Assembly: GCF_024502345.1 (NCBI RefSeq)
Contig: NZ_JALDNN010000001.1
From: Escherichia coli
GTDB taxonomy: Bacteria > Pseudomonadota > Gammaproteobacteria > Enterobacterales > Enterobacteriaceae
DNA: 64,000 nt
Reading direction: 5' to 3' (one strand)
The translations under genes were made by a program, and so were the position numbers. The number at the start of each line of letters is the position of its first letter. Position 1 is the first letter of the stretch. Under the pieces are notes generated by a model that saw nothing but the letters and a program-made list of their open reading frames with translations, searched no databases and was not told where the DNA came from. Below are positions 57,786 through 64,000 of the stretch, one piece after another.

Positions 57786-58882
57786 GCCGCGTATCTCGCT
57801 TTCTATGGATGGAGGGTAAAATTTCTACGGGTTGGGTAACGACAGGAATATTTCTTTGTATTGATGGCAAAAACAACCAGACTATCAGCCCGCAAACAAC
57901 AAATGCGATGGCAGCGGTGAGATACATCACTTTAAAACTAAATCCCATTGCCAGTTCATAAGCGAGCGGTGGCCCGATAACCCAGGCAAGCGAGATCTGA
58001 GCACGTAAAAATGTACTGAACATGACCGTCTCACGGCCTGTTCTATCGGCGTGTTCACGGGCGAGGGCGAACATTTGCGGGTTTGCGGTGGAAGCAAAAC
58101 TACTCAGAAGTACGCCCGTTGAGAGGAGAATGAAGTAGTTGCGATTCCACGCAAAAAGCGTGCAGGCCAGCACTCCAAATAAGCAACATAGCAGAATCAG
58201 TAATTTACGGTCGCCTTGTTTATCGGAGTGCCTTGCCAGAAATTGACTGACCAGAATTCCCATAATAGCGCTACCGGTGAAGAAAAAACCTACCATTATA
58301 GGACGGGCTTTCAGTTCATCTGCGAGGAATATACTTAGGGTAGGAGTCTGAAGAGCGCCCGCAATACCCGTCAGAAAGGCGACAAGTAAAAATGCCGCGG
58401 CAGTGAGATCAAGTATTTTTGATGGAGTGGTAGCCGTTTTTTGCATTCTTCTGAATCACCGGGCGAAAAAATATAACTGAGTTACAAATAAGTACCAGTC
58501 GAATGAGTATTGTATTAAGAATTTTTGAGTATCGCTGATACAACCAGAAAGCAATGCTAGCGCAATATTATAGGGCCAGCAATTGAGATTATTAGCAAAA
58601 GCATGTTAAGAATTAATTACCGAATTTATATATTAATTATAGTAAGGCAATGAGCTATTTTTGATAGTAAAAATAAAACAAGTTGATTTGATATATTAAA
58701 TGAACAAATTAATCTTGATGGCAGTCTGATTATTGGTGAAGTTTATAGTCAGTTTTTTTCGCCAGCGGTTAAAGAAATAGAATAATCGTATAAAAAAGGG
58801 TGTTCTGGGGCGAGTAAAACAACATCTTCACCTTAATGGCGATACAGTTGGCTGAGAGTCAGCAGGGGGGCAAATCACCTGC

Positions 58883-59003
58883 AAATAAACACGGCGCATA
58901 CTGGCGTGAATATCGCGGATGCGTTCGAGGACAGAAGAACCGACAGGCGGATTCTTCAGCCGCTCATCGTCCATCACAAAACCTTAGACCAGGTATTCCT
59001 GAA
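58883..59003 (-). pseudogene. fragment of a RhuM-family gene (paralogous remnant)
   Basis: About 120 bp with clear nucleotide similarity to 59745-59893 of the intact gene, including a 34-nt identical core; carries a deletion and an in-frame stop. Confidence 0.55.
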
Positions 59004-59214
59004 GCCGATTGAATATTGAGCAGTAGAAAATATCTGGATTGACAGTATTACAAGGGGTTGGAGAACGTCAGGAGAGGCATTTTGGCGATCACAGGAGTCG
59101 CATTCAGCGGCTTGATCTGTTGAATTTAGTGGTTTTTATCGTGTTGGATTTTTGTTGGTGCCCCCTATTATGCCCCCAAATGATTTTGCTTGTGGTGGTT
59201 ATAGGCATTCAGAG

Positions 59215-60252
59215 CTACTTTTTAGGCTCTGTTTTCCATTGTAGCAAACCGGCGATATCCTTCTCACCTTCGGCTTCTTTTAAGCGCCGTTGTTGTTCAG
59301 CAAACTGACCATACTCCGCCTGCGCTTTTTCATCGGCCATTTTCTTACTGATTTTACCTGCGCCTTGCAAAACCTCACGGTCGTTAAATTGCAGGAACTG
59401 ATCCAGCTTATCCTGCCAGTCGCGTAAAAAGACCTGCTGACGACGACGGGCCTGATCCTCGGCAAAATCCAGCCACATGTTAACTACGCGGTTAAGCTCG
59501 CTGACTTCATCCTGAGTGAGATAATTTTTTGCCACCGTCACGTCACCCTTACGCACCTCTTCACCTTTATAGCTGGTCAGCCCCATATGTGGCTGGCTGG
59601 CGTCAGCACGCAGATGAATGAGTTCAGCGGCGGTATGTCCGGTACAGGCAAAATGTAACTTGTTCTGGATGGTTTGAAAAAACTGCGTGGTTTCTTTCAG
59701 TGATGGTTGATAGTCGGCGGCTAACGCAAAGATCTCTCGCACCCGTAAATAAACCCGACGTTCGCTGGCGCGAATATCGCGGATACGCTCCAGCATCTCA
59801 TCGAAATAGTCGGGCACAGCCGATGAACCCACGGGCGGGTTCTTCAGCCGCTCATCGTCCATCACAAAACCTTTGATCAGGTATTCCTGGAGCGTCTGGG
59901 TTGCCCACTGGCGGAACTGCGTGCCGCGAGGGGAGCGAACGCGGTAGCCGACAGCAAGAATAACAGGCAGGCTGTAGTGAAGCCTGTTGCGGCTTACCTG
60001 ACGGCCACCTTCCTGTTGAACTTGTAAGTAAGACTTACAGGTTGCGTTTTGTTCAAGTTCGCCTTCTTCATAGATCGCTTTAATGTGCTGTGTAACTGCC
60101 TGGGGAGTGATCTGATAAAGGTTTGCGATGGTTGCCTGAGGGAGCCATAGTGTCTCTTGCTCAAAGCGGCATTCAACACGAACTTCACCGTCATCGCTGG
60201 CAAACATAACAAATTCGCCTGCCGGGGATTGGGTTAAGTATTTATCTGTCAT
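59215..60252 (-). CDS. RhuM-family protein
   Basis: 345-aa ORF (MTDKYLTQS...) with RhuM-family conserved blocks (VISVGYRV-like, RGTQFRQWATQ, LIKGF..DDERLK). Confidence 0.65.
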   Translation of the reverse strand: MTDKYLTQSPAGEFVMFASDDGEVRVECRFEQETLWLPQATIANLYQITPQAVTQHIKAIYEEGELEQNATCKSYLQVQQEGGRQVSRNRLHYSLPVILAVGYRVRSPRGTQFRQWATQTLQEYLIKGFVMDDERLKNPPVGSSAVPDYFDEMLERIRDIRASERRVYLRVREIFALAADYQPSLKETTQFFQTIQNKLHFACTGHTAAELIHLRADASQPHMGLTSYKGEEVRKGDVTVAKNYLTQDEVSELNRVVNMWLDFAEDQARRRQQVFLRDWQDKLDQFLQFNDREVLQGAGKISKKMADEKAQAEYGQFAEQQRRLKEAEGEKDIAGLLQWKTEPKK

Positions 60253-60339
60253 GCCGTCTCCGCTTATATCTGACTCGCAATGCTGTAATCCGCTTAGTAT
60301 GCCAGAAATTCTTGGTGAAGCTTATTACGCAGATAGCGT

Positions 60340-62329: not shown

Positions 62330-62399
62330 AGGCGACTCCTTTAAAAATGGGCATAAAAAAGCCACCCCGAAGGATGGCCTGGATTGAAAGGCTGGATTA

Positions 62400-62849
62400 T
62401 TAAGGTGAAACAGAAGGGTGTATCTGCGATGCAGTCTTTTCTGAATCTGGTATCGGCAATGCAGATAGTTCGGCAGGACTAAGCTTTCCTGCGCGGTAAA
62501 GTTGCAGTTTCACCAGAATCGGCGCTTTTTGCGACTGAAGGTAACTCAGGCACCATTCCCGCTTCAGGACTATCCTGACCGGGGCAGGCAAAAGCTCATA
62601 TGCTTTGCTAAAAACGACTTCAACAAAAGCATCATCACTCAGTTTATCCTCGGCAATATTCAACAGACCATTGATGACAATATTTTCCAGTAACAGCCTG
62701 TATTTGTCAGAACCCGTTACCGAAGCTTTAACCGTGTTTTCCGGTAAGTGTTCAGAAGATGTGTCATGATTTTCTGTGTGTGCTTTTCTGCGTGAGAAAT
62801 TCAGCTTTTCTGTAAGGCTACGAAATTTTCCTGTGCTATTTTCAGACAT
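62400..62849 (-). CDS. hypothetical protein (149 aa)
   Basis: ORF from ATG 62847-62849 (MSENSTGKF...) with agga RBS about 9 nt upstream; co-oriented 70 bp upstream of the DUF932-like gene; no family recognised. Confidence 0.45.
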   Translation of the reverse strand: MSENSTGKFRSLTEKLNFSRRKAHTENHDTSSEHLPENTVKASVTGSDKYRLLLENIVINGLLNIAEDKLSDDAFVEVVFSKAYELLPAPVRIVLKREWCLSYLQSQKAPILVKLQLYRAGKLSPAELSALPIPDSEKTASQIHPSVSP

Positions 62850-63092
62850 CGTAATTTTATCCTGTGGCCTCCGCGTCTTGCCATCAGGCAAGTACGGCGA
62901 GTTTTTTTATCGCTTTAATCAGGCTAAAGGTGGTCAAACCTGCACCTAGAGCCCTGACCGTGACCGAATGGCTTCGCATCAACGTAACCCCCATTACGCA
63001 CAGGACAAGTTGCCACGTACAATCAGGCCATGGGGGGTCATTACCCGGCATGTCCGTAACCACTTCGCTTTGACTATGCACGGAAAACACCT

Positions 63093-63736
63093 CTACTTGT
63101 AGCCATTAGGGAGCCACTGGCCCTGTTTGCGAATATCAGTAATAATGCCCCCCTCTTTGACCGAAATGGTACGCCAGCTTGGTTCTTTGCTGGATGCATT
63201 CCCATAGGTATACCCGACAGTCATTGTCAGGTTTTCGCCTGAAGTTGTGGTGAGATCAGCCTCATACTTAGCTTCGGTATTTTGTTTGCGAATAAAACGC
63301 ACGGTGTTGATTGCAGAACAGCGAATACTGCTTTTCGCATATTCAAAGGAATTGTTAGCCATTTGGCATCCGTCGTTTTTAATTTCATCCGTCAGGTTTG
63401 CAGAAACATTAAAGTTCTTAGGTACAGGGGCAAATTTAGCCATGTCGTTTCGCATAGTCGGTGGATCTGTCTGAAGCACAAGATAAACAGGACAATCTGA
63501 TTTGCCTACTTCACACGCTTTTGCCACGTAATCACGTACTGGCCATCCAGCATTACCGAAATATTCCGCACCACTTTCATCTTTGCATTGTGACCAGGTA
63601 GCTTTTTTCCCCATCATAATGCCGTCTACCAGCACACAGGTGACGGCTTTTACAGGCTCACCATCCCACCGGACTGCATCAAAGGGCTGAATGCCTGTAT
63701 GGTTCACGTCAAGCGTGTAGGCCTGTGGATTCCTAG
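63093..63736 (-). pseudogene. hypothetical protein, 5' end truncated by IS5
   Basis: Reading frame open from the IS5 junction to stop at 63093; the first 23 residues of the track ORF are encoded by the IS5 terminus; no family recognised. Confidence 0.45.
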
Positions 63737-64000
63737 GGAAGGTGCGAACAAGTTCCTGATATGAGATCATCATATTCATCCGGAGCGCATCCCAGAGGGA
63801 CATCATGAGCCATCAACTCACCTTCGCCGATAGTGAATTCAGCACTAAGCGCCGTCAGACCCGAAAAGAGATTTTCCTCTCCCGCATGGAGCAGATTCTG
63901 CCATGGCAGAATATGACCGCTGTCATCGAGCCGTTTTATCCCAAGGCGGGCAATGGCCGACGGCCCTATCCGCTGGAGACCATGCTGCGTATTCACTGCA
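63737..64000 (+). mobile_element. IS5 insertion sequence (left end, continues beyond window)
   Basis: Terminal repeat ggaaggtgcgaacaag starts at 63737, immediately after a CTAG target site (63733-63736). Confidence 0.85.
63805..64000 (+). CDS. insH: IS5 transposase, N-terminal part (partial)
   Basis: Translation [40 protein letters not shown]... matches the IS5 transposase N-terminus; runs off the window end. Confidence 0.85.

Follow-up and report, generated by a model that had tools for sequence, protein, structure and literature searches.

A probable distal end of a decayed CP4-57-type genomic island at selC in Escherichia coli

In the stretch of Escherichia coli DNA analysed here (64,000 nucleotides of contig NZ_JALDNN010000001.1, referred to below as the window), the gene order of K-12 is lost near setC and gives way to a run of genes ending in an insertion sequence. 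Where exactly does the K-12 backbone stop, and what is the DNA beyond it? A sequence-only reading of the locus took it for the far part of an element inserted at selC, and this core idea is borne out: K-12 homology breaks off within the selC 3′ end, and a related island in strain CFSAN051542 runs on to an integrase and an intact tRNA-Sec. We consider it very likely that 59101–63736 represents the distal (attR-side) end of a CP4-57-type genomic island at selC. The features of the locus are collected in Table 1.

The edge of the backbone and the selC remnant

Alignment with K-12 MG1655 places the last collinear position at 59100, not at 58446, and the boundary of the island is 59100/59101. Collinearity is also broken at exactly 56565–57784, which is the extent of an IS30 copy inside setC (transposase match to NCBIfam transpos_IS30, E=3e-82). 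The sequence-only reading was thus right that backbone synteny ends near setC, but by starting the island at 58447 it set the beginning of the foreign DNA about 650 bp too early. It had also placed selC within 100–200 bp of setC in K-12; in the MG1655 annotation 636 bp separate the end of selC (3836316) from the start of setC (3836953). The 770-bp AT-rich stretch that had been taken for the island edge is therefore, over 58447–59082, the normal intergenic spacer of K-12, from which it differs at 2 of 636 positions with no gaps (99.7% identity).

The spacer contains the yicT pseudogene, a relic of rhuM on the minus strand at about 58843–59004. The corresponding relic in CFSAN051542 is annotated as partial rhuM, and fragments of the relic are 78–90% identical to the rhuM gene of the island. 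That the K-12 spacer itself contains a rhuM relic, immediately beyond the att site, suggests that the site has been occupied and eroded repeatedly.

No tRNA gene was detected by ARAGORN in the whole window, and an Rfam scan of 50000–64000 (E≤1) gave no RNA family matches, in agreement with the earlier statement that the AT-rich stretch next to setC has no tRNA-like sequence. The same reading had seen no att-like direct repeat at the setC-proximal edge, but alignment and a search with a 13-mer core located an att-type repeat directly before the boundary, and it is within this selC 3′ end that homology to K-12 stops. When the full 22-base 3′ end of selC was sought without gaps and with up to 3 mismatches, no match was found, as expected for a copy that carries a 4-bp deletion. 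At the same place CFSAN051542 keeps 21 of the 22 selC bases, a loss of 1 bp against 4 bp in the window, and the 4-bp deletion recurs in five metagenome contigs of the window's lineage.

Table 1. Features of the setC-proximal locus (positions are those of the window)
Feature	Position	Strand	Evidence or remark
setC (backbone gene), split by IS30	56039..58446	-	ORFs and IS30 transposase match
K-12-type selC–setC intergenic spacer, backbone	58447..59082		38% GC; alignment to MG1655 3836317–3836952
attR-type remnant	59083..59100	-	18 of 22 bases of the selC 3′ terminus, CGACTCCTGTGAT(CTTC deleted)CGCCA
Non-coding terminal segment of the island	59101..59214		no K-12 homology; 99.8% identity to CFSAN051542
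rhuM, intact, 345 aa, terminal gene of the island	59215..60252	-	Pfam Virulence_RhuM, E=1.3e-115
DUF4942 gene, 277 aa (by the gene calls of relatives)	60340..61173	-	Pfam DUF4942, E=1.4e-70
cbtA toxin gene, 5′-truncated	61288..61598	-	Pfam CbtA_toxin, E=3e-57
Deletion junction, 1,298 bp lost, TA microhomology	61597..61598		BLAST against two relatives; base-by-base junction
DUF932 gene, 3′-truncated	61599..62329	-	Pfam DUF932, E=1.4e-48
Conserved hypothetical gene, 149 aa	62400..62849	-	syntenic in 3 related copies
Hypothetical gene, cut by the IS	63093..63736	-	comparison with related copies
ISKpn26 left end (IS5 family)	63737..64000	+	sequence; RefSeq annotation of matching copies

Island genes and an internal deletion

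The foreign DNA comprises 59101–63736, is absent from K-12 by both alignment and annotation, and carries all of its genes on the minus strand. The description of these as co-oriented genes of island type holds up well, since four of the six minus-strand ORFs encode proteins with RhuM, DUF4942, CbtA_toxin and DUF932 Pfam domains. NCBIfam named none of the six, and the two hypothetical ORFs (62400–62849 and 63093–63736) had no match in Pfam, NCBIfam, PHROGs or PADLOC. RhuM also matches the PADLOC candidate defence family PDC-S05 (E=1.2e-171). The longest ORFs of the DUF4942 gene and of the 149-aa hypothetical gene reach 61284 and 62891, respectively, and the hypothetical gene cut by the insertion sequence is missing the first 54 codons of its 267-aa relative, including an apparent signal peptide. 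The GC content of the island is 49.6%, compared to 52.2 ± 1.9% in backbone windows of equal size (9th percentile). The proposed compositional check separates the island from the backbone weakly, strong AT-richness (38% GC) being confined to the K-12 spacer; as the island lies only mildly below the backbone value, composition alone is no island marker.

Comparison with related copies revealed a 1,298-bp deletion that took the 5′ end of cbtA, the yeeU/cbeA antitoxin gene, the DUF987 gene, radC and 89 nt from the 3′ end of the DUF932 gene. This loss explains why the RadC-like, DUF987 and CbeA/YeeU antitoxin genes, present between DUF932 and CbtA in relatives, are absent here. The window has a decayed copy of a CP4-57-like design, not a different design. 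Relative to the related copy, cbtA lacks its first 31 nt and retains 102 of 113 codons; the chimeric ORF, of 110 aa, extends to an ATG at 61620, an internal start would give a product of 90 aa, and no antitoxin gene is left beside cbtA. On the other side of the junction the truncated DUF932 ORF runs to a stop at 61511, which adds a foreign tail of 27 aa. The junction itself occurs in none of 5,426 complete E. coli genomes; an exact-protein look-up with the chimeric DUF932 product identified it in the assemblies of 34 collection blocks. None of the contigs read from these deletion-carrying assemblies crosses ISKpn26, each one stopping within the element, and an exact junction search of JGI metagenome contigs for sequence past the end of the window yielded no hits.

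Related islands and the insertion sequence at the inner edge

A close relative is the 27-kb selC island of CFSAN051542 (NZ_CP020835.1, ~44.99–72.05 kb), which begins at setC and reaches as far as an integrase next to a complete selC. Its first part reads setC, repeat (21/22), rhuM, DUF4942, cbtA, yeeU, DUF987, radC and DUF932; the later part reads AlpA-like HTH, YfjJ, TerY-P, type I restriction-modification (R-M), ISKpn26, 5′-nucleotidase, integrase, tRNA-Sec and yicJ. The integrase is a tyrosine integrase adjoining the intact tRNA-Sec and yicJ. Identity to the window is 99.8% over 58447–61598 and 94.9% over 61597–63734, and the two share the place next to setC, the selC 3′ repeat, gene order, orientation and an ISKpn26 copy in the same orientation. 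The window differs in lacking the 1.3 kb (antitoxin, DUF987, radC) kept in CFSAN051542, and in the partner of ISKpn26, which abuts the hypothetical gene in the window but the type I R subunit in CFSAN051542; an extra IS3 within the DUF987 gene is found only in the latter. Strain G3/10 matches 58447–61598 equally well, and in nine other genomes with a related island the proximal end likewise has a tyrosine integrase and an intact selC. In strain E2 the same gene block lies at another site, next to fimB, which indicates that the block moves as a unit.

In K-12 a matching design is that of CP4-57, with the order int, alpA, yfjJ, cargo, DUF932, antirestriction, RadC-like, DUF987, antitoxin and CbtA toxin. 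The DUF932 and CbtA-family genes are co-oriented and stand in the same order at the distal end, and CP4-57 and the related selC islands alike place the integrase at the RNA-gene side, followed by AlpA, YfjJ and variable cargo. CP4-57, to which CP4-6 and CP4-44 are related, is a cryptic prophage integrated at ssrA, whereas the island of the window is at selC; the cargo differs, and CP4-57 has no DUF4942 or rhuM gene beyond its toxin gene.

The sequence-only reading had drawn a parallel with LEE, SHI-2 and SPI-3, which is apt for the shared integration hotspot but not for gene content. Neither the six ORFs of the window nor the complete relative contain type III secretion, aerobactin iuc/iut, mgtCB or sugar-uptake genes, and an identity with LEE, SHI-2 or SPI-3 was rejected for lack of matching gene content. 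SPI-3 carries a rhuM gene near selC but is not known to share more than this homologue with the island of the window. AGI-3 is likewise at selC (PMC2704930). The selC-A island of EAEC 042 extends from an intact selC to 21 bp that directly repeat the 3′ end of this gene, beyond which come the backbone genes setC, yicL and nlpA; it is described as consisting mainly of phage-related genes (PMC7058095).

The element at the end of the window had been called IS5. It does belong to the IS5 family, but it is ISKpn26, with 99.3% identity to the annotated copy in CFSAN051542 and only 86.4% to K-12 IS5A (265 bases). Its inverted repeat GGAAGGTGCGAAC begins at 63737 and its transposase ATG is at 63786; it is oriented as in the related islands. 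The CTAG at 63733–63736, beside the element, suits the target preference of the IS5 family and is equally expected from a fresh, independent insertion. In four genomes the right flank of ISKpn26 is identical (CTAATCAGATAG...), and these present three different left flanks, one with an intact CTAA duplication and another in which yicL directly adjoins the element and both setC and the entire island are missing. If the window copy is counted, four distinct left junctions would share one right junction.

Integration, decay and competing explanations

Integration of this kind rebuilds selC beside the integrase, and the far end of the island, directly before the selC–setC spacer, is left with an incomplete duplicate of the final 22 bases of the gene. 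The integrase and selC of the window's island should lie beyond position 64000, to judge from their linkage in relatives. At least three losses mark the decay of the copy in the window: a 4-bp deletion within the attR core, the 1.3-kb deletion that removed the antitoxin and joined what is left of the DUF932 gene to the shortened cbtA, and the cut made by ISKpn26 in the hypothetical gene. The ISKpn26 of the window may be the same copy as that beside the 5′-nucleotidase and integrase genes in related islands, in which case an IS-adjacent deletion would have removed the ~16 kb of cargo between (TerY-P, type I restriction-modification genes); the constant right flank and varying left flanks of the element in the four genomes support such a deletion. 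On this reading selC would be only ~4.1 kb past 63737, and the right end of the element would run into CTAATCAGATAGAACAG and the 5′-nucleotidase gene with no CTAG duplication. The damaged att site and the missing genes suggest that excision is prevented, and the copy in the window is decayed and probably immobile.

The principal competing explanation keeps the same selC island and differs in the history of its inner edge. Here ISKpn26 at 63737 would be an independent simple insertion, with the rest of the island intact beyond it (the missing part of the hypothetical gene, with YfjJ, AlpA and such cargo as TerY-P and type I R-M) and selC ~20 kb past the end of the window. The CTAG flank fits this as it would any new insertion, many E. 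coli genomes contain multiple copies of ISKpn26, at up to 40 or more positions in a single record, and an undeleted version of the island is known in one contig that also carries the setC::IS30 allele. Set against this, related islands carry ISKpn26 in the same orientation, where it has been the source of at least two different one-sided deletions, and we regard a simple insertion as rather unlikely. Much less likely still is that an inversion or large deletion between ISKpn26 copies severed the link to selC, leaving an orphan fragment with unrelated chromosome after the element. All assemblies of the window's lineage break at the IS, the genome has active IS elements (including the IS30 in setC and ISKpn26), and 58447–64000 is not matched over 80% or more of its length in any complete RefSeq E. 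coli genome; however, short-read assemblies commonly end at insertion sequences, such breaks carry no information on rearrangement, and the island lies between setC and selC in every relative examined.

The proposal that all of 58447–64000 is ordinary E. coli backbone deleted in K-12 is refuted. GC content close to the backbone value would suit it, and the yicT relic would fit an earlier island of this kind in K-12, but the break falls at a tRNA 3′ end that is present as a direct repeat, other strains have the same gene block at a different locus, the genes are of the sort usually seen in mobile elements, and parts of the island have megablast-level matches in just 5 of 5,426 genomes. A contiguous selC site of K-12 type is present in ~2,572 of these 5,426 complete genomes, and the site is interrupted in about half of them, an ordinary and already known situation; the rhuM-type island junction is covered over at least 80% in 861. 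The setC::IS30 junction was found in no complete RefSeq E. coli genome, and a look-up of its product led to other island types or to the undeleted island.

In conclusion, selC is a textbook integration hotspot and the island type of the window is already annotated in RefSeq E. coli genomes, so that the locus has little importance beyond correct annotation: the boundary is 59100/59101, the spacer is backbone, the att remnant is damaged and the copy is decayed. Of minor evolutionary interest are the yicT relic outside the att site and the deletions next to ISKpn26, by which the island seems to be worn down in several lineages. We tentatively propose, as a plausible but far from secure idea, that one ISKpn26 copy beside the selC integrase acts as a recurrent one-sided deletion engine that trims the island from inside, here with cbtA nearly full-length and its cis antitoxin deleted. 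If this is true, the CbtA toxin gene would be silent, inactive, or restrained by antitoxin paralogues elsewhere in the genome.

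Backbone edge and att remnant

The sequence-only reading had taken the DNA directly after setC as the probable far end of an island at selC, with integrase and selC beyond the window. In kind this was right, and the integrase does adjoin selC in the closest complete selC island, that of E. coli CFSAN051542; the reading erred on where the boundary falls, on the nature of the AT-rich stretch, on the presence of an att repeat, on the selC–setC distance in K-12 and on which IS it is. In a megablast comparison with K-12 MG1655 (3832000–3891000), the full window gave collinear blocks at 3040–40287, 40465–56564 and 57785–59100 with 98.8–99.1% identity, the start at 3040 being the limit of the K-12 stretch compared and not a break in synteny. 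The sole interruptions are 177 additional bases at 40288–40464 and an IS30 copy at 56565–57784, and the backbone therefore ends at 59100 rather than 58446. In MG1655 the gap between selC (3836222–3836316) and the start of setC (3836953), which holds the yicT pseudogene (3836425–3836556), is 636 bp and not the 100–200 bp of the sequence-only reading. In a three-way alignment of window, K-12 and CFSAN051542, window 58447–59082 differed from this spacer at 2 of 636 positions, without gaps. The supposed 770-bp AT-rich island stretch is thus mostly ordinary K-12-type spacer (636 bp, 38.1% GC), the remainder being the att remnant (18 bp) and the island terminus (114 bp).

Homology to K-12 stops within the 3′ end of selC. 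With the break marked by a slash, the alignment reads ...GGTTCGACTCCTGTGATCTTCCGCCA/AAATGCC... in K-12 and ...GAATGCGACTCCTGTGAT----CGCCA/AAATGCC... in the reverse complement of the window; thus 59083–59100 is a copy of the terminal 22 bases of selC carrying a 4-bp internal deletion. A gap-free pattern search for the repeat found no match in the window because of this deletion, and the sequence-only reading had likewise seen no att-like repeat at the setC-proximal edge. Sequencing error was rejected as the source of the gap, since five metagenome contigs of the same lineage share it. CFSAN051542 retains 21 of the 22 bases at the corresponding place, and its intact selC, at the opposite end of the island, has all 22. 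There is a published precedent for this layout in the selC-A island of EAEC 042, which has intact selC at one end and, at the other, a 21-bp direct repeat of the selC 3′ end, after which come setC, yicL and nlpA (PMC7058095). The absence of selC itself had been correctly noted (no tRNA by ARAGORN in the whole window, no Rfam match in 50000–64000 at E ≤ 1), as had the co-oriented gene string, which comprises six minus-strand ORFs.

Three observations concern the backbone. Fragments of rhuM lie in the spacer just outside the att remnant (58822–59005, the equivalent of K-12 yicT), in the same orientation as the intact island rhuM and 74–90% identical to it, with internal losses; this suggests that selC previously hosted a similar island, since decayed, in K-12 too. 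The 177 bases between tisB and ysdE/emrD are GC-rich with palindromic arms (cccctcgcccctttggggagagggctagggtgagggg) and resemble a small repeat element of the intergenic kind; in CFSAN051542 the spacing at this point is that of K-12. Finally, the IS30 copy interrupts setC (56039–58446). The resulting junction was found in no complete RefSeq E. coli genome, and the 221-aa truncated SetC product has exact matches in 62 collection blocks, beside widely differing selC islands (a P4-like satellite, an arsenic-resistance island, CP4-like islands), a distribution that indicates an IS30 hot spot or else a single old insertion with later island turnover.

Island content and relatives

Features in the ORF list for 55000–64000
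Feature	Position	Strand	Evidence
nlpA	54183–55001	+	
yicL	55005–55928	-	
setC, two ORFs	57781–58446 and 56039–56575	-	IS30 transposase gene between pieces
IS30 transposase gene	56572–57723		NCBIfam transpos_IS30, E=3e-82
RhuM	59215–60252	-	Pfam E=1.3e-115; PADLOC candidate defence family PDC-S05
DUF4942	60340–61173/61284	-	Pfam E=1.4e-70
CbtA toxin	61288–61620	-	Pfam E=3e-57
DUF932	61511–62365	-	Pfam E=1.4e-48
Hypothetical ORF	62400–62891	-	No match in Pfam, NCBIfam, PHROGs, PADLOC
Hypothetical ORF	63093–63806	-	No match in Pfam, NCBIfam, PHROGs, PADLOC

The composition of the island (59101–63736) is only mildly atypical, at 49.6% GC against 52.2 ± 1.9% in equal-sized backbone windows (9th percentile). 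About 2,572 of 5,426 complete genomes have selC and its spacer contiguous as in K-12, so the site is interrupted in about half of E. coli genomes. In 861 genomes a rhuM-type junction resembling that of the window was at least 80% covered, with identity near 84% in many of them. Coverage of 58447–64000 stayed below 80% in every complete RefSeq E. coli genome. CFSAN051542 and G3/10 match 58447–61598 at 99.8%.

The CFSAN051542 island spans 27 kb in the order setC, partial rhuM (yicT equivalent), rhuM, DUF4942, cbtA, yeeU antitoxin, DUF987 (IS3-split), radC, DUF932, three hypotheticals, another hypothetical, HTH regulator (a Phage_AlpA Pfam match for the copy in L024, a contig with an undeleted island), YagK/YfjJ, hypothetical, TerY-P triad, type I R-M (M, S, DUF4268, R), ISKpn26, 5′-nucleotidase, tyrosine integrase, tRNA-Sec and yicJ. 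CP4-57 of K-12 has the same design (intA, alpA, yfjJ, cargo, yfjQ (DUF932), antirestriction, RadC-like, DUF987, antitoxin, CbtA-family toxin). In CFSAN051542 a distinct Arm-DNA-binding ORF of 150 aa (L004, 7446–7898) sits between selC and the full-length integrase (404 aa) and may be a second-integrase remnant from an earlier integration. In strain E2 (L003, 11378–28664) the DUF4942-to-type I R-M block, including TerY-P, adjoins fimB and nanC instead of selC, and so is mobile as a unit; a RelE/ParE-CopG pair takes the place of rhuM ahead of it.

Decay and the terminal insertion sequence

BLAST against both relatives revealed a clean internal deletion: window position 61598 joins L003 positions 13240 and 14539, with 1,298 bp missing and TA microhomology at the join. 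Lost with it were 31 nt from the start of cbtA, the antitoxin, DUF987 and radC, and 89 nt from the 3′ end of the DUF932 gene, whose frame acquires a foreign 27-residue tail. The CbtA frame retains 102 of 113 residues, with a possible new start at the ATG at 61620 (MRKEDAH...); with its antitoxin neighbour deleted, cbtA is annotated by gene callers only as a 90-aa internal-start product. The deletion junction occurs in 0 of 5,426 complete genomes. An exact match to the chimeric DUF932 protein is on record in 34 blocks of metagenome and SRA assemblies; a natural lineage therefore carries the deletion. The IS cuts off the first 54 codons of a 267-aa hypothetical gene, an apparent signal peptide among them. 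Together with the att core lacking 4 bp, these lesions suggest that the element would no longer be able to excise.

The terminal IS, with inverted repeat GGAAGGTGCGAAC starting at 63737 directly after CTAG and its transposase ATG at 63786 on the plus strand, had been called IS5. It is ISKpn26, with 99.3% identity to the CFSAN051542 copy against 86.4% to K-12 IS5; RefSeq labels matching copies 'IS5-like element ISKpn26 family transposase'. In four genomes (L015, L016, L017, L021) the right flank of ISKpn26 is identical, CTAATCAGATAGAACAG followed by 5′-nucleotidase, integrase and selC, and the left flanks vary. A matching CTAA duplication is found in L016 and L021 and marks the original insertion; CFSAN051542 (L017) has CTTG on the left. 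In L015 (GCA_040537825.1, 5661–8000) ISKpn26 is joined straight to yicL, with setC and the entire island missing and 5′-nucleotidase, integrase and selC retained on the other side. A constant right flank with differing left flanks is the signature of recurrent one-sided IS-adjacent deletions. The window IS shares the orientation of these copies, which, with the one-sided deletion pattern, makes it more likely than not the same ISKpn26 copy. In that case the island would have lost about 16 kb of cargo, and selC would be expected about 4.1 kb past 63737. Every assembly of the lineage stops within the IS, and JGI metagenomes, searched for the junction, gave no matches.

The island is a commonplace, degraded example of a well-known class of elements, and near-identical relatives of it are already annotated.
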